Positions 17,607-36,350 of a DNA stretch of 64,000 nt are shown here, piece by piece. Source of the DNA: Alphaproteobacteria bacterium (GTDB lineage: Bacteria > Pseudomonadota > Alphaproteobacteria > UBA828). Under the pieces are notes generated by a model, which was not told the DNA's origin, ran no database searches, and saw only the letters and a program-made list of their open reading frames with translations. The DNA lies in NCBI GenBank assembly GCA_965221125.1, contig CBDCRW010000007.1, forward strand, positions 1-64,000, given 5' to 3'. Each line of letters opens with the position of its first letter. Position 1 is the stretch's first letter. Both the position numbers and the translations under genes were made by a program.

Positions 17607-17613
17607 GGCTTCG

Positions 17614-19181: not shown

Positions 19182-19192
19182 GAGAACGGGAC

Positions 19193-20362
19193 ATGCCGCG
19201 ACTGAAGAAGAGATCGCTGTCCAACCGGGTGGTCGACGCGTTGACCCCAGAGGACAAGGAGATCATGTGCTGGGACCGGGACCTGCCGGGCTTCGGGGTG
19301 CGGGTCTATCCCAACGGGTCCAAGACCTACGTGGTCCAGCGCAGGGGCCGGCGCGGCTCGAAGCGGATCGCCGTCGGCCGCCACGGCACCCTGTCCGTGG
19401 ACGAGGCCCGCCGGCAGGCGGCCGTGATCCTCACCCGCATGGAGACCGGCGGCGAGCCGGGGGCGAAGCCGGACCCGGACGAAGGGCCGACGGTGGCGGA
19501 GCTGGCGGAGCGCTACCTCCGCGAGCACGTGGCGGTTCACTGCAAGCCGGCCACCGCCCTGGGCTACCGCCGGACGATCGAGCGGAACATCCTGCCGAGG
19601 CTGGGCAAGCTGCCGATCACCGAACTCGACCGCACGCACGTTGCCGAGCTCCAGTATCGCCTGCGCAAGAGGCCGACGGCGGCGAACGACGCCGTTGGCG
19701 CGCTGTCCCGGATGCTGAACCGTGCGCAGGCGTGGGGGCTGCTGCCGGGCGGCAGCAACCCCTGCCGCTTCGTGAAGCCCTACCGGACGCGGCGGCCCGA
19801 GCGCTTCCTGACCGAAGACGAGTTCCGCCGTCTCGGTCAGACCCTGGACGATCTGGAAGCCGAGGGCCGGCTACCCATCCACGTCGCGGCGGCGTTCCGG
19901 CTGCTGACGCTGACGGGGTGCCGGTCGGGCGAGGTGCTGACGCTGCGCTGGAGTGACGTGGCGCTGGAGCGGAACGAGATCAGGTTGGCCGATAGCAAGA
20001 CCGGTCCCCGGATCGTTCCGCTGTCGCCTGCGGCGGCGCGTGTGCTGGCCGGGCTGCCGCGTCTCGCGGGCAACCCCTGGGTGATCGCAGGCCCGGAGCC
20101 GGGCGAGCGGCAGATGCAGCTCACCTATTACTGGTACAAGGTGAGAGAGCACGCCGGTCTCGACGACGTGCGGATTCATGACCTGCGTCACAGCTTCGCG
20201 TCGCGCGCCCTGGCGCTGGGCCATGACCTCACGATGATCGGCAAGCTTCTCGGGCACAGGAAGCTGCAGAGCACCGCGCGGTACGCGCACCTGGCGCGGG
20301 ACTCGGTGAAGGAGTCCGCTGCCCTGGTGGCGGCCAGCATCGCCGCCGATATCATGCCGTGA
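19193..20362 (+). CDS. Second tandem tyrosine integrase, 389 aa
   Basis: Same motif set (LTGCRSGEV, HDLRHSFAS, LLGH, TARYAH); starts 11 nt after the first integrase. Confidence 0.93.
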   Translation: MPRLKKRSLSNRVVDALTPEDKEIMCWDRDLPGFGVRVYPNGSKTYVVQRRGRRGSKRIAVGRHGTLSVDEARRQAAVILTRMETGGEPGAKPDPDEGPTVAELAERYLREHVAVHCKPATALGYRRTIERNILPRLGKLPITELDRTHVAELQYRLRKRPTAANDAVGALSRMLNRAQAWGLLPGGSNPCRFVKPYRTRRPERFLTEDEFRRLGQTLDDLEAEGRLPIHVAAAFRLLTLTGCRSGEVLTLRWSDVALERNEIRLADSKTGPRIVPLSPAAARVLAGLPRLAGNPWVIAGPEPGERQMQLTYYWYKVREHAGLDDVRIHDLRHSFASRALALGHDLTMIGKLLGHRKLQSTARYAHLARDSVKESAALVAASIAADIMP

Positions 20363-20430
20363 GAGTGGCTCGATCCTCCCGCCTGACGATCACCGGCCCG
20401 CCCCGACCATTGGCGTGATGCGGGCGAGAT

Positions 20431-20458
20431 TTGACATGAGTTAGCGCCACACGCTAAT
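20431..20458 (+). promoter_or_regulatory. higBA promoter/operator
   Basis: TTGACA at 20431 followed by palindrome TTAGCG-N5-CGCTAA (20441-20457). Confidence 0.6.
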
Positions 20459-20479
20459 AGCGTGGTGCGGCCATCGGGA

Positions 20480-20761
20480 ATGATCAAGAGCTACAGAAAC
20501 GCCGACACGGAAGCGGTCGCGAGGCGGGAGCGTCTGAGGCGTCTGCCCGCCGACCTTCAGCGGCGCGCACAGGCGAAGCTGATGATGCTGAACAGCGCGA
20601 GGACCCTGAACGATCTGCGTGTGCCTCCGGGGAACCGGCTGGAAGCGCTGTCGGGGGACCGAAGGGGCCAGTACAGCATTCGGATCAACGATCGCTGGCG
20701 GATCTGCTTTTCGTGGAGGCAGGGAGACGCATACGACGTTGAGATGGTGGACTATCACTGA
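20480..20761 (+). CDS. higB: HigB (RelE/ParE family) toxin
   Basis: MIKSY...[33 protein letters not shown]...VDYH. Confidence 0.92.
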
Positions 20762-20796
20762 AGTCGTGACGGGCGCGACGGGAAGGACGCAGGCAG

Positions 20797-21123
20797 ATGG
20801 GAACATCGACACGGAAACAGGGCTGCAAGCTGCGCCCCATCCATCCCGGCGAAATACTCAATGAGGAGTTCCTGGTTCCGCTGAAGCTCACTCAGTATCG
20901 GCTGGCGCGGTCGGTCGGTGTCGACCCCCGCCGCATCCACGCCATCGTGCGCGGCGAGCGCTCCATCTCGGCTGAGACGGCTTTGCTGTTCTCGCGCTTC
21001 TTCGGGAACTCGGCGGAGTTCTGGATGGGTCTGCAAAGCCAGTACGATCTGGAGCGGGAACAGGATCGTCTAGCCGACAGACTTGGGAAGGTGGCGGTGT
21101 ACGGCGCTCGTCCCGTGGCCTGA
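20797..21123 (+). CDS. higA: HigA antitoxin
   Basis: PIHPGEILNEEFL, HTH, FWMGLQSQYDL. Confidence 0.92.
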   Translation: MGTSTRKQGCKLRPIHPGEILNEEFLVPLKLTQYRLARSVGVDPRRIHAIVRGERSISAETALLFSRFFGNSAEFWMGLQSQYDLEREQDRLADRLGKVAVYGARPVA

Positions 21124-21324
21124 GCAATCGGTGGCGGGCTCGGTCGCCGAACGGTGTCTGGAGTGGCGCGGATCGCCGATAATGCTACGCGCCGCCCGCC
21201 CCTCTCCAAGCTGTTCTTCGCCGACGGCGGGGAGGGAGACATTCGAGCCGTGGACACACCCGCGTTCGCCAGGTTTCCATGTGGGCGAGTGAGCCCCACG
21301 ATATAAGACTGCCGAAAGAACGCC

Positions 21325-22203
21325 ATGGGTTCCGTTGCCGACAAGATCGCAAGGAAGATTCTCACGTCCCGCGGCTCGAAGGTCGTCGATCTGGCGGGTT
21401 GGCAGGAGGGCAGGAAGATGGCCCTCGAAGCCGGTTTCGGTGGCGAGGGCCCGGTCCCCGACAAGTTCGCGGACCTTGACCCGTGCCACGGCATCTACGC
21501 GATGGCGGAGAACATCGTCTCCCTCATGGCCGAATCGATTTCCGGGATGAGAGAGGCGAAGGGCTTCGTCAGGATCGTCGGCGACGCCGAGGACGAATAC
21601 CTGCCGTCCGGGCCGCCGATGAGTCCGCTGACCGCCAGCTATTTCACGATGTGGGCGTTCTTCGACGTCCAGTTCGGGAGCAGCCGGGAGACCATGGGCA
21701 ACTGCATCCTGCGGATCGCGCCCGAGTTCGATTGCCCGTCCTGGCTGATCGACGCCATTGAGCGGATGCAGCACTCGAGGATGGGCTTCTACGTCCATTG
21801 CGGCAGCGAGGGCGAGGGGGTCCTGCTGCGCGAGGTCGGCACGCGGGAGATGGTCTCCTGCACGGTTCCCGCCGGCTATGCCGGCCGCGAGGGGGAGGTC
21901 TGGTTCGTGCGTGTGCTTCCACCGCCCAACAGCCTGTGCCGCCGGCATATCGTGTTCAACACGCCCTACGTCTTCCGGGACTGGCCCGAACAAGCCTTTG
22001 TCGACTATCTTGAGCGCGAGCTCGCGCGGATGATGGCAAAGAAGCCGCCCAGGACGGATGACCCGCACGGTCATCTGATGAAGTACGGTCCGGGTCCCAA
22101 CCACTGGAACGAATACGTCTTCTGCGCGTATGTCGGTCATCGGCACGAGGCGATCTTTCTGACCGGCATCCCGGACATGCGGCAGAGTCTTCCCCATGCC
22201 TAG
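21325..22203 (+). CDS. Hypothetical protein, 292 aa
   Basis: Strong coding bias and globular composition; no family recognised. Confidence 0.75.
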   Translation: MGSVADKIARKILTSRGSKVVDLAGWQEGRKMALEAGFGGEGPVPDKFADLDPCHGIYAMAENIVSLMAESISGMREAKGFVRIVGDAEDEYLPSGPPMSPLTASYFTMWAFFDVQFGSSRETMGNCILRIAPEFDCPSWLIDAIERMQHSRMGFYVHCGSEGEGVLLREVGTREMVSCTVPAGYAGREGEVWFVRVLPPPNSLCRRHIVFNTPYVFRDWPEQAFVDYLERELARMMAKKPPRTDDPHGHLMKYGPGPNHWNEYVFCAYVGHRHEAIFLTGIPDMRQSLPHA

Positions 22204-22267
22204 ACCGATCCGTAGTCCAGCCATCAGGTATCGACAGCAAGTTTGGGTGCGCATCGGGAAGGCCTTT

Positions 22268-22434
22268 GCGCGCCCTGGCGCTGGGCCATGACCTCACGAT
22301 GATCGGCAAGCTTCTCGGGCACAGGAAGCTGCAGAGCACCGCGCGGTACGCGCACCTGGCGCGGGACTCGGTGAAGGAGTCAGCGGCGCTGGTGGCGGCC
22401 AGCATCGCCGCCGATATCATGCCGTGAGAGTGGC
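22268..22434 (+). pseudogene. Duplicated 3' end of integrase 2 (direct repeat of 20203-20369)
   Basis: 167-bp near-identical copy encoding RALALGHDLTMIGKLLGH...ADIMP*, with 3 synonymous differences seen. Confidence 0.88.
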
Positions 22435-24331
22435 CGGACCGACCGTCAAGGCCGCATCGGCATCGACGAGGGATAACTGGCCGGTGGTCCGTATCGCCGA
22501 TGACTGGACTCCTACGCTGGCGAAGGGGCTCGCCGCGCTGAACAACCGCGACCTCACGGTCATGGTGAACTGGCTCTCGGTGCCGAAGCCGCGGCCCACG
22601 CGCAAGGCCGACATGATCGCGGCCATCGAGGGCCGTCTCAGCGGGGCCTCGCTTGGCCTCCTGTGGGACGGTCTCGACGAGGTTCAACGACTGGCGGTGG
22701 GCGAGGCGCTGCACGATGCCGAGGGCTTCGATGCCGCGCGGTTCGAGGCCAAGTACGACGCTTTTCCTGCGGGCTTCGACGGGATCGGCGCCCCCGGTGC
22801 ATTGCCCTTACGCCTCTTTCTTCATTTCCGCGGCGGTCACGTGGGCTCGGCACCGTTCATCCCGCCCGATCTGGCGGAGCGCCTGCGTGCGTTCGTGCCC
22901 GCGCCACCCGAGGCGACGCTCGCTGGCGAGGACGAGCTGCCGGAGGCGATAGACCGGCGACGGCGCGGCTACGTGCCCAAGGGAGAAGAGCCGACATTCG
23001 ACCGCGTCGCGCTGGTTCGGCGCGACATGGAGCGCGCGGCGCAGAGGGACCTGGTCGCCGTGCTGCGCCTGATCGATCTCGGCCGGGTTGCGGTGAGCGC
23101 GAAGACGCGGCGGGCCTCGGCGGCCTCGGCGGCGGCCATCGCCGGGGAGCTGGATGGGGGCGACTTCTACGACCTTGCCGAGAAGCGGGAGAGCTGGGAG
23201 CAGGCGGTCGGCCCCATCAAGGCGCACGCCTGGCCGTGGCTGGTGCAGGCGGGCAAGCTGGCCGAGCTCAGGGGCTCGAAGCTGGCGCTGACGAAGAAGG
23301 GCCATGCAGCGCTGGGCGCGCCAGCAGCGGAGACGTTGCGCCACCTCTGGCAACGCTGGATCAGGAACGACCTGCTCGACGAGTTCAGCCGCATCGACGC
23401 CATCAAGGGCCAGAGCCGCGGCAAGGGCAAGCGCGCGCTGACTGCGGTCTCGACGCGCCGCCCGGTGGTGGCCGAGGCGCTGGAGCAATGTCCGTTGGGC
23501 CGCTGGGTACGCTTCGACGAGTTCTCGCGCTTCATGCAGGCGGCGTCCTTCGATTTCGGTATCACGCGCGATCCGTGGAAGCTCTACCTCTTCGATTCTC
23601 ACTACGACAGCCTTGGCTATGACGGTTGTCACGGCTGGAACATCCTGCAGGGCCGCTATCTTCTGTGCGTGTTGTTCGAGTACGCCGCGACGCTGGGCCT
23701 GATCGACGTCGCCTACATCCACCCCAAGGGAGCGCGGGTGGATTTCACGGGGCTGCCGGGGAGCGACGAGCTGGCCTGGCTCAGCCGCTATGACGGGCTG
23801 CAGTATTTCCGACTGAACGCGCTCGGCGCCTACTGTCTGGGGCTCGCCGATACGTACGAGCCGGGCGCGTTTCTGGAGCGCACGTCCCTGACGGTCTTTC
23901 CCGACCTGAGGGTGTGCGCCGGCGGGGCATTGTCGGCGGACGAGAGGCTGATGCTGGAGACGTTCGCGGAGGCCGAGGCGGAGGGCGTCTGGCGCCTGGC
24001 GCGCGACAGGACGCTGGCGGCCTTCGAGAGCGGGCACGATGGCGACGGCCTGCGCGCTTTTCTGGCGGCACGGGACGAGCAGCCCCTGCCCGAGAGGGTC
24101 GAGGGCTTCCTGCGCAACGTCGAGCGCGGCGCGGATGCGCTCAAGGCGCGCGGCACGGCGCTGTTGATCGAGTGCGTCGACGAAGATGTTGCGGCGAGAA
24201 TTGCGGGCGACGAGCGCCTGGCGAAGCTCTGCCTGCGCGCGGGGAAAAAGCACCTGGTGGTCCAGACGAGGGCCGAGGCGGCGTTCCGCAAGGCCGTTCG
24301 CGACCTCGGCTTCGGCATTCGCAGTGCATGA
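22424..24331 (+). CDS. Helicase-associated (XPB/Helicase_C_3-like) domain protein; true start probably slightly downstream
   Basis: C-terminal VWRLARDRTLAAFESG..LRAFL...PLPERVEGFL; no Walker motifs. Confidence 0.65.
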   Translation: MRVAGPTVKAASASTRDNWPVVRIADDWTPTLAKGLAALNNRDLTVMVNWLSVPKPRPTRKADMIAAIEGRLSGASLGLLWDGLDEVQRLAVGEALHDAEGFDAARFEAKYDAFPAGFDGIGAPGALPLRLFLHFRGGHVGSAPFIPPDLAERLRAFVPAPPEATLAGEDELPEAIDRRRRGYVPKGEEPTFDRVALVRRDMERAAQRDLVAVLRLIDLGRVAVSAKTRRASAASAAAIAGELDGGDFYDLAEKRESWEQAVGPIKAHAWPWLVQAGKLAELRGSKLALTKKGHAALGAPAAETLRHLWQRWIRNDLLDEFSRIDAIKGQSRGKGKRALTAVSTRRPVVAEALEQCPLGRWVRFDEFSRFMQAASFDFGITRDPWKLYLFDSHYDSLGYDGCHGWNILQGRYLLCVLFEYAATLGLIDVAYIHPKGARVDFTGLPGSDELAWLSRYDGLQYFRLNALGAYCLGLADTYEPGAFLERTSLTVFPDLRVCAGGALSADERLMLETFAEAEAEGVWRLARDRTLAAFESGHDGDGLRAFLAARDEQPLPERVEGFLRNVERGADALKARGTALLIECVDEDVAARIAGDERLAKLCLRAGKKHLVVQTRAEAAFRKAVRDLGFGIRSA

Positions 24332-24578
24332 GCGGCGGATCGGTGTCCTCATTCTGCGCGCCGGTGGCCGACGCCATCGGCACCCATGCCGGGCCTGAAC
24401 AGATCGGCCGGAGGGAAGCTCGGTGATGCGGTGTCGCCTCTGCGCCGGCACCGGTAAGATCGTCCTGCTCGCCGCGCTGATGGCCGGAATGGGAGCGAGA
24501 ATATGACCGGCTCCGCTCAACGCGGCGTGAGGCGGTGTCGAGCCCTCGCCAGGTCCAGCGAGGGGACGGCGGCTCGCG

Positions 24579-25646
24579 TTAGTCTGCGTTCTCCAGCCGC
24601 GCGATCAGCTCGTCGCCCGTGGCGCAGTCGATGATCCACTCGCCGACGTCGGTCAGCCGCCCCGGCTCCCCGATCCCGGCCAACAGTGCGGCGGCGCGCT
24701 CGGCGATGTCATCGCCGAACTTCCGCTCGGTGAGGCGCCGCAACAGCAGGCGTTCATGTTCGACGCCCTCGGCGCGGCCCAACTCGACGCCCTCGGCACG
24801 ACCCTTCTCGACGCCCTCGGCGCGGCCCTGCTCACGGTCGGCTTCACGCCACGCGCGAACACGGTCCTGGACCGGCGTCCGCATCTCTCCTTCTTCAGGA
24901 ATCCGTTCCATCTCCTCGAACTCCTCGATCAAAGCGCCTGCGGCGCCCTGCCCGGCAAGCAAAGTGAACCAGTCATAAAGCGTCCGGCGCAACTGCCGGT
25001 GCTCGGCGCCGCGAAGGGCGGAGAACGCCTCACGCAGCGTCGCGTATCCCTCACTATACGACGACATCCGCTCGATGCCGACCACAAGTGAGAGCACGTC
25101 GACTGGTGCGGAATCTCCGGCTTCAACCCGGCCAACGTCAAGCGTCACGTAGCCCGAGCCGGCATACGTCGGCACGGAGGCGATGCGACTTGGGGGACGG
25201 GCCTCCGGTGCAACCAGCTCCTCGACGCTCGCCGCAGCCGTCCACGGAGACTTCCCGTTGTACAGCACCACGGGGAGCACCGGCGGCAGACGGTCGGACG
25301 CGCCGAAGCGGCGATCCGCCCAGAGCCCGCGATAGAGCAGGTCCACGTAGGTCCGAACCCGCAGCGCCATCAGGTGGTCCACCGCAGACTGGAACTCGAT
25401 CAGCACGAAGAGGTAGGCCCAATCGTCCTCGCCGCCGTCGCGCAGGCGCACGCGCCAGATCAGGTCGCTCAGGTGGCGGTGCAGGGTCTCGTCGATGCGC
25501 TCGGTGGGCACCGGCTCCAGGGTCTCGGGGTCGAAGGCCGCGATCCACGCCGGGCCGTCGTCGATCATGCCCTCGACGAAGCGGAGCAGGTGCTCGACGG
25601 AAATCCTGTGGGAGAAGATCGACTTGTAGCACTCGTCGTAGCGCAT
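24579..25646 (-). CDS. Rpn-family (YhgA-like/Transposase_31) PD-(D/E)XK nuclease, copy 1
   Basis: D..YKSIFSH, SDLIWRV, LIEFQS, LPPVLPVVLYNG, C-terminal GRAEGVE repeats. Confidence 0.88.
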   Translation of the reverse strand: MRYDECYKSIFSHRISVEHLLRFVEGMIDDGPAWIAAFDPETLEPVPTERIDETLHRHLSDLIWRVRLRDGGEDDWAYLFVLIEFQSAVDHLMALRVRTYVDLLYRGLWADRRFGASDRLPPVLPVVLYNGKSPWTAAASVEELVAPEARPPSRIASVPTYAGSGYVTLDVGRVEAGDSAPVDVLSLVVGIERMSSYSEGYATLREAFSALRGAEHRQLRRTLYDWFTLLAGQGAAGALIEEFEEMERIPEEGEMRTPVQDRVRAWREADREQGRAEGVEKGRAEGVELGRAEGVEHERLLLRRLTERKFGDDIAERAAALLAGIGEPGRLTDVGEWIIDCATGDELIARLENAD

Positions 25647-26278
25647 GGCCGCGTCCTCTTCGGGGCGGCCGCGTGCTCATGCTGCAACCGTCGCCGGCGA
25701 TGGTATCCGAGGGCGTGCTGGGAGGCCAGAATCCCGTGGCGCGGAGGGTCGTCAAAGAGGGCCGGGTGAGCAGGGCAAATGAGCGCTGCGATCATGGACG
25801 TGGCAGACGCGCGCAGCATGTGCCGACCTTATCCAATTGCGCCGCTACGTGGCGCGCCCAGATGGCGGTTTTCGCCGTCGCGGCCGCGTGCACTCCGGAA
25901 GCCGCCGTCATCAAAACCGCGGCATGGCGGCGGAGAATACGCGCTCCGCTGCCGCCTCGTGCGGGGTCGAGCGGGCGCGCGCCGGCCGCGACCAAACAGT
26001 TGAGGACGACGAAAAAATTGTTGGGGCCATCGGAGCCGGGCTGCTGCTGCGCCGCTCACGGTGGGTGCGCCGACACCTTTATATGCCTGCGCCCCATCGA
26101 TGTGCCGGCGGCGCTCAAAGTACGGCGATTCGGGCGATCCGGATTGCCGATGCGGGCGCAGCCCTTGAGGACGCCGCGCGGGAACCCCACGATGATTACG
26201 TGGTGGCGGGACATGAAGTGCCGATGCCCATTGCACGCTGTAGCCCCAAGCCGTTGTCTGGCGTGCTGAATTTCGGGC

Positions 26279-26601
26279 TTGCAAAGGCTGCGGAATTGTG
26301 GCGAGAATTCGCTTCAGCACGTTGAGCGGCACGGAGGATGACGCGGTGACGTGCAGGGAGGCTGCAACGACGGGGGCGGAAGCCCCGGACAGGATCGGGA
26401 ACGCAGCATGGTTCATCGCCGCATGGGTCGGGTATTCGGCCTGCCGAGGCACATCTCATGAGTGGACAAGATTGGGGTGATGTGGTGAAGTTCATGGGCT
26501 ATGGACAGTTGCCGAGTCGTCAGGTACGTTGACGGCCGAATTGATGAACCCAGCGAGGCCTCTTGGCGAGGCCTCTTCAAGCAGAGGAGAGCCTCGGAGC
26601 C
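26279..26601 (+). promoter_or_regulatory. Conserved promoter and long structured leader of lipoprotein 2
   Basis: TTGCAA-N18-GAGAAT (26279-26308); block-wise homology to 57356-57642 (-); SD inside AGAGGAGAGCCT (26583-26594). Confidence 0.65.
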
Positions 26602-29046
26602 ATGAAGAAGACGAAGCTGACTCGCAGTTTGATGGCGGCGGTCTCGATCGTTGCCCTTTCGGCCGTCATGTACGGCTGCTCGAACGGCCACAGCGATGCC
26701 GACCTGGACGCGGCAGCGGAAAAGGCGAAGATGGAGGCCGAACAGGCCCAGATGGACCTCGACGCGGCGGTCGATGCGACGGAAGCGGCCCGTATGGCTG
26801 TCGCCGGTCTTTCCGACGCGTCCACGGACGCGGAGATCATGGCCGCACGGATGGCGGTCACGGAAGCGCAGCAGGCCGCAGCGGAGCTGGCCGACGATCA
26901 CAGTCTGCACGCGTCGATTACTCAGATCGACACTGACCTGCAAGCCATAGAGATGGCTCGGGCGAATGCCGACCAGCAGCAGATGGTGGCCGACCAGACC
27001 CAGGCGGTGAATAACGCTTTGGGTGCGGCGAGGATGGCTGTCGAAGCTCTGGATCGGGCCGGGGCGACTGACGAAGCCGTCGCAGCTGCGAGGGGCTTGG
27101 TCATGGCCGCCCAGGATGCCCTGGATGCCGCGACGGCGTTGTCTGACGAGCAGCGTTCGGGCTTGGCCGGGATGATCATGGCCGTTTCCGGCACGCTCCA
27201 GGGGATCGAAGAGTACCGTGCTTCCGAACCGGGGCAGCTGGCGGTGGCCGAGGCAGCGGTTGAAGCGGCCCAAATGATGGTGGATGCACTGACCGACGAT
27301 TCCACGCCTGAGGAAGTGGGGGCTGCACACGCTGCTCTGCAGAGGGCGAAGCAGGCGGTTGCGGCTGCCGAGAACCTCGACGAAAACGTGCGCGCGCGCT
27401 TGCACGGTCAGATCGCCGATCTGGAAATGGAGCTCGGCGACACCGAGACGGATGTGGCGAATCTCAGGAGCGCGCAAGACGCGATCAATGCAGCGCAGGC
27501 TGCCGTCGACGCCTTGGGCGACGAAGCCACTTCGGAGGCTGCGAACGCCGCCAACGCTCTTGTCGCTGCCGCGCGCACTGCATTGGCCAATCTGAGTGAT
27601 GAGGACGCCGCTCGGTTGGAGAGCCAGGTCGCGGCCTTGGAGATGGAGATTTCAGGCATTCAGTCTGAGATAGCGAACCGGGGTATGGTGGCCGCAGCGA
27701 CCAAGGAGGCGGGCACCAAGGAGATGGCCATCGCGGCGGAGGCCGAACAGATGGCCGACGCCGGTCTCGGTGGCAGTGACCACGTGAACGCGGACGGTAC
27801 TGATGGCAATGCGGATGATCCGTATGGTTTGGACATCACACGCGATCGCGACGGCACGGAGATCAAGATCACTGACCATGGCATGATGGGCGACGACGAT
27901 CCGAAGTTCATGCAGACCATGGACTTGGGCGGCGGAACCACCATGCATGTCCGTGAGTTGGAAGCGGACGATGATGGCAACGTCGTGTCGGAGGTTGTGA
28001 TCGTCAGCACCACCATCGAAGCGCCGAAGGCGGTGGCGTTCGCGGAATTCGAAGTTCACGCCGCTGATGGTACAGTAACGATGCCCCAAGCGCTTAACGT
28101 CAGACAAGATGGCGTAGCGGTGGACGCAGATAATCCTGCTGATTCGCGCGATCTCGGCGCCGCCTTGAGCGGAGGCACCGAAGCCGACGCAGCCATTCTT
28201 GCGTTGGTCAAGTCTAGTAGCTTTGTCACGGTCAATCCGGCGGAGACCGAGTTGACCTTCAAGATGGATGACGCAACAACCGACGACGAGGACGAAGCCT
28301 TTGAAGGTGCTGGTACCTACAACGGCGCGATGGGAACATACAGGTGCGCCGGTACGGCCGTGTGCACGGTCACACTTGATGCGGAAGGCATGATCACCGC
28401 CATGAGCGATGGCTGGATCTTCACTCCCGCCGAGGGTGCCACCTCTGACCAGCCGGACTATAACTTCCTGCACTACGGGTTCTGGCTGAAGCGGACGATG
28501 GCAGACGGGGCGACCGCATACGACGAGGTCGAGACCTTTGCCGGTTCGTCGGTCAATGCGAGCGTTGATGTCAGTGCAGTCAGAGGCACAGCGACCTACG
28601 ATGGCCACGCTACGGGCGTGTACGTGCACAGCGTGAGCAACCCGGACGGCACACGCGCATCGGCCACCTCCGGTCACTTCATGGCAGACGCCATGTTGAA
28701 GGCGTATTTCGGGCAGATGCCGGTTTCCGACACGGACACAACGGGTACGATCGCGCCGAACAAGCTGTGGACCGTCTCCGGCACCATTAGCGACTTCGAG
28801 TTGTCCGGTGAAGAGCAGAATAAATGGTCGGTGAACTTGAAGGAAGCCGACTATGAGACCACCAATTCCACTGGAGTGTTCGCGGGCGATGCCGAGGGCG
28901 GGGGAGAATCGGGTTCATACAATGGAACCTTCCACGGCGCGGCGGACGCCGATAACCAGCCCCACAGCGTGGTTGGTGAGTTCAACGCCAACTTCAGCAA
29001 CGGCTCGGTGGCTGGTGCCTTCGGGGCGACGAAGGACGACGAGTAG
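26602..29046 (+). CDS. Surface lipoprotein 2 (Ala-rich coiled-coil stalk plus TbpB-like barrel), 814 aa
   Basis: Same MKKTKLTRSL..AVMYG-C signal as lipoprotein 1; YGFWL, ATYDGHATGVY and terminal GAFGA. Confidence 0.87.
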   Translation: MKKTKLTRSLMAAVSIVALSAVMYGCSNGHSDADLDAAAEKAKMEAEQAQMDLDAAVDATEAARMAVAGLSDASTDAEIMAARMAVTEAQQAAAELADDHSLHASITQIDTDLQAIEMARANADQQQMVADQTQAVNNALGAARMAVEALDRAGATDEAVAAARGLVMAAQDALDAATALSDEQRSGLAGMIMAVSGTLQGIEEYRASEPGQLAVAEAAVEAAQMMVDALTDDSTPEEVGAAHAALQRAKQAVAAAENLDENVRARLHGQIADLEMELGDTETDVANLRSAQDAINAAQAAVDALGDEATSEAANAANALVAAARTALANLSDEDAARLESQVAALEMEISGIQSEIANRGMVAAATKEAGTKEMAIAAEAEQMADAGLGGSDHVNADGTDGNADDPYGLDITRDRDGTEIKITDHGMMGDDDPKFMQTMDLGGGTTMHVRELEADDDGNVVSEVVIVSTTIEAPKAVAFAEFEVHAADGTVTMPQALNVRQDGVAVDADNPADSRDLGAALSGGTEADAAILALVKSSSFVTVNPAETELTFKMDDATTDDEDEAFEGAGTYNGAMGTYRCAGTAVCTVTLDAEGMITAMSDGWIFTPAEGATSDQPDYNFLHYGFWLKRTMADGATAYDEVETFAGSSVNASVDVSAVRGTATYDGHATGVYVHSVSNPDGTRASATSGHFMADAMLKAYFGQMPVSDTDTTGTIAPNKLWTVSGTISDFELSGEEQNKWSVNLKEADYETTNSTGVFAGDAEGGGESGSYNGTFHGAADADNQPHSVVGEFNANFSNGSVAGAFGATKDDE

Positions 29047-29107
29047 AGCAATCATCAGGTTCGAGGCTTTTCGATGAAAACCTGATCCTCTGCTTCAAGA
29101 CTACTTT

Positions 29108-29138
29108 AGGGGGTGGCCGGATTGCCGCCCCCTTTTTT
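29108..29138 (+). terminator. Intrinsic terminator/attenuator between lipoprotein 2 and Slam 2
   Basis: AGGGGGTGGC-CGGATT-GCCGCCCCCT then TTTTT. Confidence 0.75.
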
Positions 29139-29155
29139 CCGTTCGCCGACCACCA

Positions 29156-30607
29156 ATGCGAGTATCGGCCGTGTCCACCAGCTTTGCCCGTCAGGCGCCC
29201 GCGATGTGGACGCCGCTTGTTGTCCTCACCGTAGCGATCGCCATTTGCCTGGCATTCGCGTCACCGTCCTGGAGCGCGGAGCATGATTCCGAGTTGCTGC
29301 CGCCCTCCACCCCCACTGCGGAAGCGCCTGCCGCAGCCGACACCGCCACCGAGGCGCAAGCGAAGGCGCTGATTGACGCGGGCCGCTTCGGCGAGGCTTT
29401 CGCGGTCCTGCAGCCGCTGCTCTCGGGCGACGCCGTGGACCCCAACACGCTGTTCCTCTACGGCCTCGCGGCGCTTGAAGCCTCGCAGCAGCAGGGCCGC
29501 ACGGACGATCAGCGCGAGTTGCTGCTCAACGAGGCCATCGGCGCCTTCCACACCATGCTGCTTGCGCAGCCCGGCCTTGTGCGGGTGCGCCTGGAGCTGG
29601 CTCGCGCATTCTTTTTCAAGGGCGAGGACGATCTCGCGAGGCGCCACTTCGAGGCGGTGCTGGCGGGCGAGCCGCCTGAGGCGGTGGCCGCCAACGTGCG
29701 CGGCTTCCTGGCCGCGATGCAGGCGCGCAACCGCTGGAGCTTCAGCCTGGGCGCGGCGCTGGCGCCCGATACGAACATCGGCGCGGATTCCGAGGAGCGC
29801 ACCATCTACATCTTCGGCCTGCCCTTCGAGCGGGACGCGGAGGAGCTGACCACGTCCGGCGTCGGCGTCTCGGTGTGGGGTGGGGCGGAGTACCAGGTGC
29901 CGGTGGCGGTGCGGCTGAGACTGCGCGCCGGCGGCGAGGCGGCGCGGCGGGAGTACGGGGGCTCGGAGTTCGATCAGCTCTATCTCGCCACCCATCTGGG
30001 CCCGCGCTGGCTGATTGACCAGAACACGGAGGGGAGCCTGCTGGCGAGCGCACGGCAGCGCTGGACGGGCACGGTGCCGGACAATCGGGAGCTCGGTGCA
30101 CGTGTTGAGGTGGCCCACCGGGTGAGCACGCAGGTGACGGCGTTCGGGCGGGCCTCGCTGCACGAGCGGCGCTACCGGGACCGGGCCTGGCTGGACGGGC
30201 CGATCGTGGATGCGTCGCTCAGGGGGGTGTGGACAGTGACGCCGACGGTGCGGGCGAACCTCTCAGGGGGCTACGGCCGTGAGCGGCCGGAGAGCGAGCC
30301 CTATCGCAACCGCAGCCGGTGGCTCGGGATCGGTGTCGACGTGATCCTGCCGCTTGGCTTCACGGTGGGCGCGGGCGGCGAGGTGCGCTGGACGGATTTC
30401 GCGGGGGAGTGGCCGCCCCATACGCCGGCAGGCGAGGACCGGGCGGACCGCACGCGGAGCCTCCGGCTTTCCGTTCACAACCGGGCGTTCACCGTGTATG
30501 GCTTCAGCCCCGAGCTCGTGGTGGTGAACGAGGAGCGGGAGACCAATGCGCAGCTCTACGACTACGAGCGCACGCACGGTGAGCTTCGCTTCGTGCGCCA
30601 GTTCTGA
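29156..30607 (+). CDS. Slam-like surface lipoprotein assembly modifier, copy 2
   Basis: Diverged paralog of 14519-15928 with the same TPR and barrel motifs and the ELRFVRQF terminus. Confidence 0.85.
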   Translation: MRVSAVSTSFARQAPAMWTPLVVLTVAIAICLAFASPSWSAEHDSELLPPSTPTAEAPAAADTATEAQAKALIDAGRFGEAFAVLQPLLSGDAVDPNTLFLYGLAALEASQQQGRTDDQRELLLNEAIGAFHTMLLAQPGLVRVRLELARAFFFKGEDDLARRHFEAVLAGEPPEAVAANVRGFLAAMQARNRWSFSLGAALAPDTNIGADSEERTIYIFGLPFERDAEELTTSGVGVSVWGGAEYQVPVAVRLRLRAGGEAARREYGGSEFDQLYLATHLGPRWLIDQNTEGSLLASARQRWTGTVPDNRELGARVEVAHRVSTQVTAFGRASLHERRYRDRAWLDGPIVDASLRGVWTVTPTVRANLSGGYGRERPESEPYRNRSRWLGIGVDVILPLGFTVGAGGEVRWTDFAGEWPPHTPAGEDRADRTRSLRLSVHNRAFTVYGFSPELVVVNEERETNAQLYDYERTHGELRFVRQF

Positions 30608-30783
30608 CGGGGCGGAAGAGCGAGGGAGTGGTGTTCCCGACGTGGCCATGCGCTGTGCTGGCGGGCGCCCGCACTTGCCGGAGTTATGCGAACGCCGGCA
30701 CAGTTGCCGCCGGCCGACGGGTTCGACGCGCAAGTCTGCGGAGATCATCGAGGACGGCTGTGTTTGCCGAAGGAGGATCGATC

Positions 30784-31140
30784 ATGAAACGCTTGCTCGC
30801 GATGGGCGCCGCCGTGTGCGCTCTGGGCCCCATCGCCGACAAAACGGGCGGTCAGGAGGCTGCCAGCGTGCATCTTGAGGCCGGCTACCAGCACTTCCTC
30901 GTCGGCGGAGCGAGCCTGGGCACCGACGAGGCCACCTTTGCGTGCCGGATCACTCCTACGGTGTCCTGATAGCACCCTGATGGCGCGCGGGGATACGATG
31001 TGCTGCCGTTCGTCACGCTGGAGGCCGAAGTGACGGTGGGCGTCGTCGACGGCGATCCGATGATCGAACCCCCTCTCGGCGACATCCCGGTCGAGGCCCG
31101 GACCGAGTACGGCCTGGCCGCGTTCGCCGTGTCCTGCTTT
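30784..31140 (+). pseudogene. Degraded outer-membrane beta-barrel/porin-like gene
   Basis: SD AGGAGG; signal-like MKRLLAMGAAV; in-frame TGA TAG at 30967-30972, then the frame continues GYDVLPFVTLEAEV. Confidence 0.4.
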
Positions 31141-32271
31141 TCTCACCCGGGATCGCGCTCCCATGAAGGGCAGGCGGGCCGGCAGGCGCCCGCCCGGTTG
31201 CGCGGGCGCCCCTTGGTGAGGTTCGCGAGAGGCCGGTCCGGGGCCGGGGCGGGTTTCGCTCTCGCATGCGCGCTGGCCGTTTCCGTCCTGCTGCCGGGCG
31301 CGGCCGCCTCCGATGAGACGGGCCGGCAGGATATCGCGGCACCCCTGCGCATGGTGAACCTGAACCCGTTTCACCTGCTGTACGGCGTGCCGGCTTCGAC
31401 CGGCGCCCGCGTGATGCCGGAAGGCTCGTGGGAGCTTACCGCATCGCTGGACATGGCATCGCACCTGCGCGCGGGCGGCTCGGGTACGGAGCGCGTGCTG
31501 ATTGACGGTGAGACGTGGCGGCAGGGTCTGGCGCTGCGTCACGGACTTGGCGGCGGCTGGGAGCTTCTGGCGGATCTGCCGGCAGTTTCGCACACCGGCG
31601 GCGTCTTCGACGGGTTCATCGAGGGCTGGCACGACGCCTTCGGCCTGCCGCAAGGGGACCGGGACCGCGCGCCGAGGGACCGGCTTGCGCTGTTCTACGC
31701 CGACGGCGGCGGGACCCGTCTCGATATCGACAGCGACGTCCACTCCCTCGGGGACGCGAGCGTGGGGGTGGGCTACGCCCTGCCGTCGCCGCCGTTCTCG
31801 AACGACGGCATGGTCGTACGCGCCATGGTCAAGCTGCCGAGCGGCGACGAGGATGCGCTTGCGGGCTCGGGGGGATATTCGGCATCGGCCTGGGCGGAGA
31901 CCTCGGGCGCATTTGCGGGCTCTGCCGGCTCCCGCAACTGGCTCTATGCCGCGACGCTGGGCGTTCTCGCGGGCGAGGCGCCGGAGAGCCTTTCGGCGAT
32001 CGGCGGCCGGTTGATCGTCTTCGGTCGCTTTGGCGTGACCTGGCGGGCGCTGGAAGACGTTCACCTCAAGGCACAGATCGACGTTCACTCCTCGCCCTAC
32101 GGCGCCTCCGCTCTGGCGCCGCTCTCCGATGCGGCGGTCATGCTGGGCCTGGGTGGGACGTTGAGGATCACGGACCATATGGCGCTCGACGTCGCGATCA
32201 CCGAAGACGACGGCACCTGGCATGCTGCCCCCGACATCGGCCTCCATGCTGCCTTGCGGTGGAGATTGTAG
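31000..32271 (+). CDS. DUF3187-like outer-membrane protein (true start probably near 31215)
   Basis: Signal-like FALACALAVSVLLPGAAA; NLNPFHLLYG; GGVFDGFIEGWHDAFGLPQG; VKLPSGD; terminal WRL. Confidence 0.7.
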   Translation: MLPFVTLEAEVTVGVVDGDPMIEPPLGDIPVEARTEYGLAAFAVSCFSHPGSRSHEGQAGRQAPARLRGRPLVRFARGRSGAGAGFALACALAVSVLLPGAAASDETGRQDIAAPLRMVNLNPFHLLYGVPASTGARVMPEGSWELTASLDMASHLRAGGSGTERVLIDGETWRQGLALRHGLGGGWELLADLPAVSHTGGVFDGFIEGWHDAFGLPQGDRDRAPRDRLALFYADGGGTRLDIDSDVHSLGDASVGVGYALPSPPFSNDGMVVRAMVKLPSGDEDALAGSGGYSASAWAETSGAFAGSAGSRNWLYAATLGVLAGEAPESLSAIGGRLIVFGRFGVTWRALEDVHLKAQIDVHSSPYGASALAPLSDAAVMLGLGGTLRITDHMALDVAITEDDGTWHAAPDIGLHAALRWRL

Positions 32272-32384
32272 GTGATCGCGAGCGTTGCCGTCGCCGGGAC
32301 CGCCCGTGGTGCTCGCCAGGGTTCCGCCGTCGCCGGCGGACTTCGGAGGCCGACATCGGCCTGGCCTGGCTGGACCACCTCGAC

Positions 32385-32500
32385 GATCCGGGCATCGTGG
32401 TGCTTCTCACGGGCGACGGCGCAGGCTACTGCGGTGGCGCAGGCTTTCACGCTGCACTTGAACGTCTTCACGCGCGGGGCTGGCGTGTCGAGATGGGGCT
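32385..32500 (+). pseudogene. NYN-domain gene fragment
   Basis: GIVVLLTGDGAGY..GAGFHAALERLHARGWRVE with no proper start or end. Confidence 0.5.
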
Positions 32501-33650
32501 TGGGCCCAGGCGGGATGTTAAATGACTGATTTAACGTCATACTTCCTAGTATAGCCCCGAGCGACGCAGAATCCGACGCACTCATTCCGGCACCTCTTGG
32601 CTACGCCCTGCTACGAGACGTCGTAGCAGACAGCCCCCTGCGCGTGCCTGAGCGTAGTGCTGTCGTAGGTGGGCAGCGGGCTGCGTCAGGTGTGAGAGCA
32701 AAAAACGCCTCAAGGCGTAAGACAGGTCCAGGGGTCCGCAGAAAAGCTATCAGGCCCAGCCACTTAGGGGGCGCAGGAGGCACGGTGAGGCCAGGAATCC
32801 GGGAATTCGGGCGTATTTCGCAGAGCATACGCGGAATTTCTTATGGCACGCGTTATGTAGAACACAATTGGCGACTTGTGTTGTCCGTGTGTGGCGATTC
32901 CGGTGCGCTCGGCACGGCTCGGGATGCACGCGGGGATCGATCTGCCGAGCTCGTGCAGGCGCATGTTCTCGCAGACTTGGCGGCGTTCGGAGATGCGGTA
33001 GAAATGAGGCAAGCGATCATGGTCGGCGCAGTGGACCGATCACCATGATCGTCACGAGTGTCGGACGTGGTGACGTCGGGCCGTTCAGGCGCGACGGCAC
33101 CAATGTCCGTCGAACCGCGGAGGCGCTCGTCGTCTTCGGCGACGGCGCTGACGCCGAGCACGCGCATGGGACTTGCAGTCCATGGGTCGAAGGTGAGTTG
33201 CGGCACGATGTCGGCGGCGGCGGTCGACGGCGCACCATCGCCATCTTCATCGCCGCGATCATCGTCATCGGCACAAGCGCGAGCGCGCGCAGTCCATGCG
33301 CGCGCCGCTGCAAAGGCCGGCGATGGCGGCGCGCGGCTCGACCGCGGTTCTGACTTCGCGTACTGAGTCGCGGTGTGTCTCTCTGCAGCGAGACGAGCGT
33401 CCGGCGATGGCGCGCAGCGCCGAGCCGGACGCGGGGCTCGGAGTGATGTGGGATGGCCAGCGACCGCAGAGAGCGCGAGCGCCGCCTGCGCGAAGCGCGG
33501 CGGCACCGGCCATCGAGGGCGCACACCGGTGGCCGATACGGATACCGGCGGTCGGGTGCACCGGACTGCGCGCATTGACAGCCGTCGTGAAAACGCAGAA
33601 CGCGGCCGGTGCCGTGAGGCACCGACCGCTGTATCTGTCGCGGGCGCCGA

Positions 33651-34565
33651 TCAGACCGGTACGACCATCACGGGAATGCCCAAGCGCTTCGCCTTGTCGA
33701 CGAGGTTGCCGGTGATTCCGCTACCGGGGAATGCGATGACGCCCTTGGGCAGCAGGTTGAGCAGGTCGTCGTTGCGGCGGAAGGGCGCGGCCTTGCCGTG
33801 GGCGTTCCAGTCGGGGCGGCAGACGACCTGATTGACGCCTCTGGCCTCGGCCCAGCTCGCTGCGATCTTCTCGACGCCGGGGCCGCCGCCGTGGACCAGC
33901 ACCATGTCGCCGTGCTTCGCGCGGGCCATGTCGAGCGTGCTCCAGACCGTGTCGGCGTCGGCGACGGTCTTGCCGCCGGTGATCGCGACCAGGGTGCCCT
34001 CGGGCAGATGCGCCCGGGTCTCGCGGTCCTTGCGGGCTCTGCGGAAGTCGCGGGCATCGATGGCGGCAGAGGTGAGCGTTCCGGTGCGGCTCGTGTGCGA
34101 GCCGTGGCGCGGGCGCCATGTGTCGCCGGTCTCAGCACGGTAGGCATCGGCTGCGATGTCGCGCATCTTCTCGAAGGCATCGCGCCTGTCGCCGAGGCTC
34201 TGCGCCCGGTCGGTGAGGGTCTGCAGCTCCCACGCCTTCACCTCCGATCCATCCTGCGCCTTCTCGAGGTCGCGCATCTCGGGAGTGATGCGGTCGACGG
34301 CACGGTCGAGCCTCTGCACCTGGCTGTGCAGCATGTTGGTGAAGCCCCACATCAGGGGCTCGCGCTCGTCGGCCATCTGGGTGCCGTCGACGGTGACGCC
34401 GTCCACGATGACGCGGATGGCCTCGCTCAGTGCATCGATGGCATCGTCTTCGTCCCAGACGACGCGGCTGTCGAGCTCGCCGCGCTCCGGTGCGGCGCCG
34501 TAGAGGGCCATGCTCTCGCAAACGGTGGCAGTTGCAGACGCGGTAGCGGTTGCGGTGTCGATCAT
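33651..34565 (-). CDS. DUF2493/SLOG-family protein (repeat copy 2)
   Basis: Identical translation to 11863-12777. Confidence 0.8.
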   Translation of the reverse strand: MIDTATATASATATVCESMALYGAAPERGELDSRVVWDEDDAIDALSEAIRVIVDGVTVDGTQMADEREPLMWGFTNMLHSQVQRLDRAVDRITPEMRDLEKAQDGSEVKAWELQTLTDRAQSLGDRRDAFEKMRDIAADAYRAETGDTWRPRHGSHTSRTGTLTSAAIDARDFRRARKDRETRAHLPEGTLVAITGGKTVADADTVWSTLDMARAKHGDMVLVHGGGPGVEKIAASWAEARGVNQVVCRPDWNAHGKAAPFRRNDDLLNLLPKGVIAFPGSGITGNLVDKAKRLGIPVMVVPV

Positions 34566-34955
34566 GACGATCTCCCTTGTTCATCCACCGGGACCCTGTG
34601 CCCCGTCGTGGTGTCCTCCTTCTTCACGCGCGCGCAGTGTCAGCACCTGGCCTTAGGAACTGTTGGGCGGGGTGGTGCGGAAGTTCGGCGATGGTGCGGA
34701 AGATGGCGCCGACGTGCCGGTGGGAACGGTGCTCCGCAGCAAATCCATTCCAGTGGTCATTGCGGCGCCGGGCCGGGCGGGCCCGCTTGGGCCTGCCCGG
34801 CGTCTAGGCGCCGCTATGAATGGTTCCGCGAATGGATTTGAAGCGGTGCAGCGTGACGCGGCGGCCCCGCGCGAGGGGCCGGCGCGCTGCGAGACGAGGC
34901 GGTTGGCGATTACACGCAAGCCATCTTCACGGTCGCCGAACTTCACGGCCCGCCC

Positions 34956-36137
34956 TTACAGTTCCTTGGGCCAGGCCGCAGGGAGCGGAGCGACCGGAGG
35001 ACCCGGAGGGTTGCTGGTGCGAGCACGCGTGACAGAATTGGAGGACACGACGGAAGAGGCTTCCATTTCGGCACGCAAGGCCTCCTCTGTTTCTTTGTTG
35101 CCCGCGGGCACGGTCCCGCCGGTGCAGACCAGGGGCGCGATGCGTGCGGCCAGGGCATGCGGACCAAGGGTCACAATGTCTTCGTTGAAGTCGCCGGTCT
35201 GGGAGACGATGACGGCGCACTCGATGCGCAGAGCAAAACATCGCCGACGCAGTCGAAGCGCAGCGCGCTCGCCCGCCTCGTCGTTGTCGCAGACCACGAC
35301 GAGACGGGCGATGCCCGTTGGCGGCGTGAAGGCACCGAGCCCACCGGCCGAGAGCGCGGCAGCGGCGGTGACGGTCGGCACGGCGGTAACGATGGAGAGC
35401 ATCGTCTCGATGCCCTCCCCCACCAGCAGCGTGCCGGTGCTGGGGTCGCCAAAGCGGACGGCATGGCCGTGGACACGGCCGAGCGCCTTGCGCGGGAACG
35501 ACACGTCTGCCTTCGCGGGATGTCTGGGATCGAGCCATGTCCGATGCACGCCGACGATGGCGCCGTGAGCGGTCTGCTCGCCTGGACCGGAGTGTTCCTC
35601 CGGACCGGGGTGTTTCCCCGCGTCGGCGGTGACGGCGGCGACGAGGGCCGGCAGGCGACGCATGCCGCCGCCGTCGCGGTAGAAGAGTTCCGGGTGGAAG
35701 CGCAGCGCGGGGAAGCGGCAGCGGTGGATGGCACGGGCCCTGAGGTACGCCTCGGCATGCGTGCCGTCGATGGCGCGGCAGCGCCGCCAAAGGCGGCGCG
35801 CCGCCTCGCTGGAGTCGTAGGCCCCGTCCGAGGCCGCTGCCGGCACAGCCGGCAAGGCGAGGAAGGCGCGGGCCTCGGCCATGGCGTCGCGGAGCGGCAC
35901 GTCGCCCATGCGGTGGCGGATGAGGTCGAGGAGATCGCCATGGGTTCCCTCGGCGGAGTCGGTCCACTTGCCGGGGACGCCGGGAGGCGTGAGACGGACG
36001 AAGAGCGAGCGCCCGCGGGCACCGTGAATGTCGCCGGCGGTCCAGTACCTGCCCTGCCTGCGCCCGTGGGGCAGGTAGGCGCGGCAGACCTCCTCGGCGC
36101 GCTCGCCGAGGGCCTTGGCGATCCGGGTGGCGTTCAT
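34956..36137 (-). CDS. Toprim-domain primase-like protein (repeat copy 2)
   Basis: Identical translation to 10291-11472. Confidence 0.82.
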   Translation of the reverse strand: MNATRIAKALGERAEEVCRAYLPHGRRQGRYWTAGDIHGARGRSLFVRLTPPGVPGKWTDSAEGTHGDLLDLIRHRMGDVPLRDAMAEARAFLALPAVPAAASDGAYDSSEAARRLWRRCRAIDGTHAEAYLRARAIHRCRFPALRFHPELFYRDGGGMRRLPALVAAVTADAGKHPGPEEHSGPGEQTAHGAIVGVHRTWLDPRHPAKADVSFPRKALGRVHGHAVRFGDPSTGTLLVGEGIETMLSIVTAVPTVTAAAALSAGGLGAFTPPTGIARLVVVCDNDEAGERAALRLRRRCFALRIECAVIVSQTGDFNEDIVTLGPHALAARIAPLVCTGGTVPAGNKETEEALRAEMEASSVVSSNSVTRARTSNPPGPPVAPLPAAWPKEL

Positions 36138-36350
36138 GGGGCTCCCCCGCTCCGTCCAGAGAGTGCCCGCGTTCCGGCCGGTCTCGGGCTCTCGGCGGCG
36201 CGCGGGCGGCGGGGAGGCGCGCCGCGCACCCGCGCCGCTGCCCGGCGGGACGGGGCTCTGGTCGTGCTGCATGGAAACGGGGGCACGCGCACGCGCCGGT
36301 CATCGGCGCAGGCGCGGCCCCCAGGGTGCCGGAGGACGGTGGTGGTACTG

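Follow-up and report, generated by a model that had tools for sequence, protein, structure and literature searches.

The stretch of DNA analysed here (the window) is the initial 64 kb of C7, one of the 7 contigs of an alphaproteobacterial metagenome-assembled genome (MAG), labelled G000, which totals 4.58 Mb with a guanine plus cytosine content of 68-69%. This MAG is 92% complete with 5.8% contamination, and its source sample also contains related strains. The window holds a 39.7-kb element (element 1, positions 17626-57355) that lies between two direct copies of a short core, opens with two tandem P4-type tyrosine integrase genes, adjoins a putative surface-lipoprotein operon and carries a second, inverted locus of the same kind. 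In what follows, L denotes a leader, A the integrase-side arm, B the far end of an element, c the core and LP a lipoprotein; the relatives named below are labelled G004, G005, G011, G014, G015 and G018.

The flanking cores are exact copies of AAAGGAGAGCCT, both on the minus strand, at 17614-17625 (site S1, the junction A1-core-LP1 at the integrase-side end of the element) and at 57356-57367 (site S3, the junction L2-core-B at its far end). An 11/12 copy, AGAGGAGAGCCT, lies inside the element at 26583-26594 (site S2) on the plus strand, inverted relative to both of them, in an intact leader, LP2 and Slam2 locus. Three matches with at most one mismatch were found in the window against 0.12 in shuffled sequences, and none of 100 shuffles reached three. 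Across the family the attachment core can be written as (A/G)AGGAGAGCCT, about 10-12 nt long. Next to S1, arm A1 (17626-17960, 335 nt) bears GCGTAG repeats near 17669-17683 and 17743-17747 and is followed on the plus strand by the genes of the P4-type tyrosine integrase IntA1 (17961-19181) and its paralogue IntB1 (19193-20362), which is 54% identical to it. Both proteins have the catalytic residues (R/K/HxxR/H/Y in IntA1), and each combines a PF13356 Arm-DNA-binding domain with PF00589 (E values of 1e-26 and 1e-23); the motifs LTGCR, DAKTG/DSKTG, HDLRHS, LLGH and ARYAH are present in all seven IntA/IntB sequences aligned. GCGTAG or CGTAG repeats spaced by about 10 nt occur on arms A1, A2 (the corresponding arm of a second element, described below) and B, where the copies lie near 57198-57222, and at least four such words per 175 nt are met in only 0.04% of C7 windows. 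Given integrases with arm-binding domains and repeats on the A arm as well as the B arm, the two ends have the anatomy of an element attachment site (attP) split into attL and attR.

On the other side of S1 stands LP1 (16065-17606, minus strand), an intact open reading frame (ORF) for a 513-aa lipoprotein that now has no leader, with Slam1 (14519-16108, minus strand; PF04575, E 9e-23), an outer-membrane translocon of the type XI secretion system (T11SS), downstream. The locus inside element 1 consists of Rpn1 (24579-25646, minus strand), a putative YhgA-like PD-(D/E)XK protein, followed on the plus strand by the non-coding leader L1 (25647-26582), core S2, LP2 (26602-29046; 814 aa when read from the ATG at 26602) and Slam2 (29156-30607; PF04575). 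Rpn1 matched PF04754 with 62 bits (cut-off 21) and NCBIfam TIGR01784 with 26.8 bits (cut-off 52.1). An earlier note, made from the letters of the window, had described this intact locus, the single-base difference in the core that serves as its ribosome-binding site (RBS), the inversion of that core relative to the attachment cores, and two lipoproteins sharing a signal peptide but differing in body; every one of these items was found in place. The first 28 residues of LP1 and LP2 are 86% alike, while elsewhere the proteins are only about 31% identical over their last ~250 residues, and at the DNA level the stretch from the core through the signal peptide is an inverted repeat of 100 nt with 90% identity.

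The signal peptide and lipobox, MKKTKLTRSLLAA.SIVAL.AVMYGC, shared by LP1 and LP2, were conserved, as judged by eye, in 20 distinct lipoprotein ORFs from the relatives. The lipoproteins also share a C-terminal region of about 270 residues. When the last 270 aa of LP1 were modelled (pLDDT 73.6), the top Foldseek hits, at a probability of 1.00, were TbpB (3hol, E 7e-5), fHbp, NHBA (TM 0.62 on the target) and PmSLP, followed by HpuA at 0.97-0.99, with modest query TM-scores of 0.33-0.42; sequence searches of the PDB with LP1 and LP2 gave no hits. All five of these matched proteins are Slam cargo, and by this model the C-terminal region of the lipoproteins folds like TbpB and fHbp. Slam genes, three in the whole genome, adjoin LP1 and LP2; none lies directly downstream of LP3, LP4 or LP5.

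These five lipoprotein genes of G000 have a near-identical RBS and signal peptide, and only LP2 has a leader upstream, which makes S2 the sole intact leader-core-LP site of the genome. At LP1 and LP3 the core is directly abutted by a GCTACG/GCGTAG-rich arm and a divergent integrase pair, while LP4 and LP5 retain about 19 nt of leader with one GAGGCCTC palindrome, followed by a more distant integrase pair (63% identity). A scan of the whole genome gave L-core-LP, L-core-B and A-core-LP as the junction types present.

The spacer between Rpn1 and LP2 measures 955 nt and holds no convincing ORF. Its last ~320 nt are conserved among leaders, with a promoter-like TTGCAA-N18-GAGAAT block at 26279-26308 (about 300 nt ahead of the core), a GGGGCGGA.GCCCC hairpin and a CTATGGACA...CCGAGTCGTC block (all within 26279-26582), and two GAGGCCTC palindromes at 26555-26575, the proximal of which is predicted to be able to pair with the GGAGAG of the RBS. 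Homologous leaders in G004, G005, G011, G014 and G018 share these blocks. An Rfam search of 25600-26700 gave no match at E values up to 1, the sigma-70 promoter scan called none in the leader, the terminator scan was negative or at chance, and RNAalifold on 14-15 leaders returned weak, alignment-dependent stems only. The region had been called a promoter-leader; the conserved leader stands, and the promoter, for which the scan made no call, is presumed to lie in it. The leader may be an undescribed cis-regulatory 5' untranslated region. In G011 (contig C2, near 677,100-677,250, locus L047) we also observed a decayed leader with about six tandem GAGGCCTC units and a mutated core.

The breakpoints in relatives locate the insertion point. 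A 436-nt probe made of the leader, the core and the start of LP2 was searched in 20 congeneric genomes and 20 genomes of other genera; 16 candidates per genome were scored, and the lists of sites are therefore incomplete. It matched 14 of the 20 congeneric genomes and none of the 20 others. Among the matches listed (67 outside G000), 20 on the lipoprotein side start at probe positions 319-321, the left edge of the core (319-330), and 16 on the leader side end at 331-338, just beyond its right edge; six span the whole probe. Another 11 start at 301-304 and form a second junction class, to which LP4 and LP5 belong, with the break inside the proximal GAGGCCTC palindrome. When 38 distinct lipoprotein 5' ends were compared, 11 had the full, two-palindrome leader and 27 had not. 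No palindrome was present in 18 of the 38, and in 16 of these 18 a divergent IntA of 70-100% identity lies no more than 900 nt away; the remaining nine combine one palindrome with an IntA that is 62-65% identical. Each of the 12 distinct B ends from genome loci continues into a leader. In metagenome contigs a degenerate B-end motif gave 10 matches, of which eight were joined to a leader, one lay at a contig start and one was unrelated; the exact 31-nt word spanning B end and core had no match there.

Two observations bear on what is recognised at these sites. Integrase modules 98% identical to IntA1/IntB1 adjoin three different lipoproteins in G000, G015 and G018, and in two MAGs of other genera an IntA of 71-72% identity lies beside lipoprotein genes with the same RBS core and unrelated signal peptides, so that the core, and not the DNA of the signal peptide, looks like the target. 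MAGs labelled as other phyla also have tandem pairs, more distant (54-60% identity) and lacking the lipoprotein. Comparison with the relatives shows the element family to be a genus-wide system, and the possibility of a one-off insertion, which the survey of upstream types had been proposed to examine, was not upheld.

Uninterrupted versions of the target exist as well. An L2-type leader runs through the core into a lipoprotein gene in G015 (contig C89) and in G018 (contig C8), in both of which the insertion sequence (IS) found beside L2 in the window is also absent; the lipoprotein body there differs after the lipobox, and these are unoccupied sibling sites rather than strict orthologous empty sites. 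Together with the direct cores, the integrase pair and the GCGTAG arms, they bear out the proposal of an integrase element inserted at this RBS with a replacement locus on board. The carried site had been suggested to be either a landing pad for a next element or a one-base immunity variant. Homologous carried sites hold further elements in G004, G011, G015, G018 and metagenome contigs, and leaders of the L1 type (96-99% identical, with the same AGA core AGAGGAGAGCC) are joined to B ends twice in G015 and once in G018. The L1-type carried site has therefore been used as a target and the one-base difference gives no protection; AGA cores are occupied in G004 and G011 too, and the immunity reading was rejected. 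On these comparisons S2 can be read as a free landing pad, a reading that the occupied homologues support.

Taken together, we consider it probable that 17626-57355 is a site-specific integrative island that inserts at the RBS of Slam-dependent surface-lipoprotein operons, carries a replacement locus and forms nests. Its target would be the core acting as the RBS of such an operon, between the conserved leader and the start codon. Integration, presumably catalysed by IntA and IntB, would yield leader-core-B on one side and A-core-LP on the other and would part the resident lipoprotein-Slam operon from its leader. Near its integrase end the element would bring an inverted Rpn/leader/core/LP/Slam locus, and this carried locus would become both the sole leader-linked lipoprotein operon and the sole free target for the next element, so that repeated insertion would give nests of alternating orientation. 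The disconnected lipoprotein genes are presumably silent.

Such nests can be followed in G004, whose genome is a single contig. It has seven sites of the first junction class, at 1,532,214 (+, LcB), 1,559,823 (-, AcLP), 1,567,794 (+, LcB), 1,584,370 (-, intact), 1,596,780 (+, AcLP), 1,617,309 (-, LcB) and 1,639,760 (+, AcLP). They make up a balanced three-level nest of alternating orientation with matching gene content on each side, and each level repeats the order of element 1, namely A, IntA, IntB, Helicase_C_3, Rpn, leader, core, LP, Slam, DUF3187, SLOG, primase, HATPase, HigB and B.

The window itself has a similar layout. Its left arm (1-13750) is identical, inverted, to 32678-49242 minus one IS; it contains a ~9.3-kb multi-recombinase element, a DUF7146/Toprim primase and a SLOG protein, and is read as the B-proximal part of an outer element 2. 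Beyond S3, leader L2 of this outer element (57368-57905, minus strand) is separated by an IS (57906-59995, 2.09 kb, minus strand), which is absent at this place in G015, from Rpn2 (60314-61378, plus strand), 80% identical to Rpn1. IntB2 (62847-64000, minus strand) closes the window, and C7 64035-67172 adds IntA2, arm A2, core S4 and LP3. Contig C4 opens with 10,785 nt (C4:1-10785) that are 100% identical to window positions 46581-57365 and then runs into leader L3; L2 on C7 and L3 on C4 (at C4:10776) both stop at the core and are followed by the same B end. In addition, C4:1-2662 is the exact reverse complement of C7:1-2662. Provided that the reverse complement of C4 continues C7, the order is L3cB(+), A1cLP1(-), L1cLP2(+, intact), L2cB(-), A2cLP3(+), which would be a two-level nest. 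Element 1 would then sit in the carried site L2-core-LP1-Slam1 of its sibling element 2, and element 2 would separate L3 from LP3. The two elements would share an identical 22-kb B-proximal part, which, the carried site being inverted, would appear as the 22-kb perfect inverted repeat observed. Since the join falls within a five-copy repeat, and related strains occur in the sample from which the MAG was made, how deep the nest of G000 goes can only be inferred; the single-contig nest of G004 shows that the nested architecture itself is real.

Several results weigh against this interpretation or parts of it. All 27 evaluable lipoprotein genes, leaderless ones included, are intact ORFs (493-1369 aa); they may be expressed from elsewhere, which would weaken the claim that integration disconnects them. 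The installation of a new variant, as the earlier note had put it, holds for most of the 10 pairs of replaced and carried lipoproteins, which differ greatly (identity ranges from the signal peptide only to 100%), but fails where the two are nearly the same, as in G018:C8 (100%) or LP3 and LP1 (70%). No A-core-B (attP) junction occurs in G000, in the loci of the relatives or in the metagenome matches, and neither an excised circle nor a re-joined empty site was seen for element 1. Logan contigs from four runs of one sample (X13-X16), compared with window 13400-33000, showed no joint at the cores; these contigs are a weak witness. They break at the shared signal-peptide and core sequence, and the 10 joints listed, each with 20-35 letters on the shorter side, all lie away from a core. 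For the second junction class, no partner ends turned up. In G011, three to four outer sites are unpaired even with 190 kb more to the left, and G005 and G014 have, respectively, one A-core-LP and one L-core-B site lacking a partner in the 159 kb and 80 kb examined. The G011 sites could have arisen through flips of the S1/S2 type or through a single homologous inversion, in an IS-rich region, between siblings that lie inverted to each other. Finally, the join of C4 and C7 rests on the 2662-nt overlap, and the two-level nest in G000 could be a strain chimera.

Among other explanations, the one that survives best, at a probability we put as low though not negligible, takes the ~9-kb module between S1 and S2 (arm, IntA, IntB, Rpn and leader) for an invertible promoter cassette whose leader serves either LP1-Slam1 or LP2-Slam2. 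IntA and IntB would do the flipping, as in fim or Vpma-type switches, and the apparent integration junctions would be by-products. The geometry of an invertible promoter is present, with S1(-) and S2(+) flanking the integrase genes and the leader, and an S1 x S2 inversion coupling leader L1 to LP1, as the earlier note had envisaged, is geometrically possible. Two tandem tyrosine recombinases recall FimB/FimE. In G011, moreover, two units have the module opposite to that of element 1 relative to LP-Slam-DUF3187-SLOG, and in G014 a 4-kb module of leader, IntB and IntA lies between two divergent lipoprotein-Slam operons. However, neither L-core-B junctions nor conserved B ends can arise by inversion, and the same holds for the balanced nests seen in G000 and G004; the presence of arm-type repeats on the A side as well as the B side suits attP and not an invertase site; the second orientation is missing from the Logan contigs, weak witness as they are; and the pattern in G011 is also reached by the homologous inversion just mentioned.

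Less probable still, and improbable in our judgement, is an assembly or binning artefact in which the inverted repeat and its duplicate on C4 come from mixed strains or a mis-join, with one element and no nest. The window is the start of C7, a contig beginning inside a repeat; the 10,785 nt at the start of C4 recur in it unchanged; the arms differ by three positions and one IS only; and variant contigs of 95-99% identity are present in the runs, in a MAG with the contamination given above. Against this, the Mu-like IS is found in one arm only, no contig offers another partner for positions 13751 or 32677, and the single contig of G004 has the mirrored order of HATPase, LysR, primase and SLOG at lower identity. 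If true, an artefact would touch the nest depth in G000 and not the island. A palindromic contig produced by an invertible middle segment was set aside separately, as no contig has the other flank and one arm alone has the IS. We give hardly any credence to the idea that the lipoprotein is a terminal cargo gene of the island and the core merely a conserved family RBS, since, although lipoprotein genes adjoin integrase pairs in 25 of 38 cases and RBS and signal peptide are conserved across the family, dozens of copies lose homology precisely where the core begins or ends, near-identical integrase modules have different lipoproteins as neighbours, leaders end at the same core before conserved B ends, and uninterrupted leader-core-LP versions exist.

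Building on the island interpretation, a further and more speculative proposal, which we regard as doubtful, is that, in uncultured Alphaproteobacteria that are marine or sponge-associated, the stack works as a mobile-element-encoded memory of antigenic variation of Slam/T11SS cargo. A leader would be linked to the innermost operon alone and the older ones would be archived intact, to be re-coupled by excision of the inner element or by core-to-core inversion of the leader module by IntA/IntB. The tandem integrases would then divide integration and switching between them, and incoming siblings would be steered into the resident carried site.

With respect to the remaining content of element 1, IntB1 is followed on the plus strand by an insert (20370-22434) with a HigB-like toxin (20462-20761), a helix-turn-helix (HTH) protein (20797-21123) and a 292-aa ORF, and then by a 635-aa ORF with a Helicase_C_3 domain (22424-24331, plus strand), which the homologous modules in G004 and G011 retain. 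A second copy (98%) of the final 167 nt of intB1 (20203-20369) lies 2 kb downstream, at 22268-22434. This duplication brackets the HigB/HTH pair and the 292-aa ORF and recurs in loci L056, L057 and L061 of relatives; the insert is absent from locus L055 of G015, which, with the recurrence, suggests a second small element targeting the 3' end of intB. Downstream of Slam2 lies a DUF3187 protein (31000-32271, plus strand), which the homologous elements in G004 and G011 also have after their Slam gene. The B-proximal part (32678-57355) contains SLOG, primase, a Mu-like IS, the multi-recombinase element and further genes, the order past the multi-recombinase element being LysR, KatG, LysR, a HATPase_c_2 protein and HigA/HigB. 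Pfam and NCBIfam gave no match for LP2, the 292-aa ORF or an 820-aa ORF of the multi-recombinase element, and by eye no excisionase-like ORF was recognised among the listed ORFs of the leader spacer and the B-proximal regions. Between Rpn2 and IntB2, the module of element 2 includes a 340-aa ORF (61550-62572) whose product starts with a lipoprotein-like signal (...LTLNGC); a paralogue (82% alike) adjoins Slam3 at C7:78303-79339.

The other mobile DNA of the genome was also recorded. Further tandem tyrosine integrase pairs, 34-40% identical to IntA1/IntB1, are found in five places of G000 (C2:4465-6788, C3:9169-11378, C6:236283-238523, C7:305711-307954 and C4:444538-446798), and islands of this organism seem commonly to be built with an integrase pair. 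The multi-recombinase element has five genomic copies of 98.7-100% identity (window 281-9656 and 39819-49242; C2:27821-37166; C4:642530-651777; C5:57110-65960). It encodes two ORFs with Phage_integrase domains (414 and 495 aa), the 820-aa ORF and a RecD-like helicase, has diverged direct repeats of ~180 nt lying 8.6 kb apart, and may be a mobile element of the GInt/RIT-like kind; contigs C7 and C4 both begin within it. The Mu-like IS (37017-39818, 2.8 kb; also at C3:6368-9178, 100%) has a 511-aa ORF with a Mu-transposase C-terminal domain and imperfect terminal inverted repeats of ~104 nt, and occurs in one of two otherwise identical 22-kb arms. The IS beside L2 encodes a 595-aa product in which a DruA-like N-terminal region (PF14236) is fused with a DDE_Tnp_1 transposase, and has at least 11 genomic copies, 99.6-100% identical, over five of the seven contigs.

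If the island interpretation is correct, its logic is that the target is a translation start region and that the element replaces what it disconnects and renews the landing pad within its own cargo, from which recursive alternating nests with one leader-linked lipoprotein at a time are predicted. It would offer a testable route by which Slam/T11SS surface proteins of host-associated bacteria change through horizontal transfer while older versions are kept intact, and would account for giant perfect inverted repeats, for contig breaks at these loci and for the many leaderless lipoprotein genes beside integrase pairs. The short core and the paired integrases would also make a compact natural landing-pad system open to in vitro study.

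Compared with known systems, the closest general model is that of P4/lambda-type integrative islands, some of which insert at a gene's 5' end, dusA being one such target (PMC8409611). The present elements share with them the arm-binding tyrosine integrase at one end, the short duplicated core, the arm repeats and insertion at a gene 5' end. They differ in having two tandem paralogous integrases, in a target that is the RBS itself, with the resident gene losing its leader rather than being restored, and in carrying a full copy of the target locus internally and inverted, for which reason siblings nest instead of lining up in tandem. Systems that regenerate their target and stack include dif-targeting IMEX arrays, SCCmec composites, Tn7 at attTn7 and integron cassettes; in integrons, whether a gene is expressed depends on where it lies relative to one promoter. 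As in these, every insertion leaves a usable target and elements accumulate at one locus. In the known stackers, however, the target is regenerated at the junction of element and chromosome and the arrays are head-to-tail, whereas here it lies inside the cargo as the start of an operon and orientation alternates, none of the 12 + 8 B ends being in an A-core-B junction.

In the mycoplasma Vpma system, the tyrosine recombinase Xer1 is reported to vary lipoproteins through a single expression site (PMC2268961). Many lipoprotein genes there share a 5' region, with the recombination site just upstream of the coding sequence and one gene at a time linked to the promoter, as in our elements; in Vpma, one chromosomal recombinase inverts resident genes, whereas we deal with mobile islands of 30-40 kb that have their own integrase pairs and documented insertions. 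Slam cargo is described as following an eight-stranded barrel rule (PMC5449769), with which the LP1 model agrees; as in known Slam/T11SS loci, a PF04575 gene stands beside the lipoprotein, and the C-terminal handle with an eight-stranded barrel resembles TbpB, fHbp and HpuA. T11SS genes are reported to co-occur statistically with transposases and mobile islands (PMC5449769; bioRxiv 10.1101/2024.09.26.615229); neither of these two texts mentions "integrase", and they describe no element at an operon RBS, unlike the case presented here. Likewise, a literature search, supplements aside, gave no description of integrase elements at Slam/lipoprotein ribosome-binding sites.

With regard to paired recombinases, GInt elements are described as having three integrases and a small protein, and SE elements as having intA-tfp-intB and srap (PMC5385486, PMC10214605). 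Like GInt, SE and RIT elements, the present ones carry at their end an operon that encodes more than one tyrosine recombinase; unlike GInt and SE, they pair two P4-like paralogues, IntA and IntB, which lie next to each other, have arm-binding domains and lack any tfp-, srap- or ginD-like partner. The ~9.3-kb multi-recombinase element is predicted to be closer to the GInt/SE/RIT families than the IntA/IntB pair is. In conclusion, the parts of this system, namely P4-type integrases, attachment cores with arm repeats and Slam loci, are ordinary, and it is their arrangement that is unusual.

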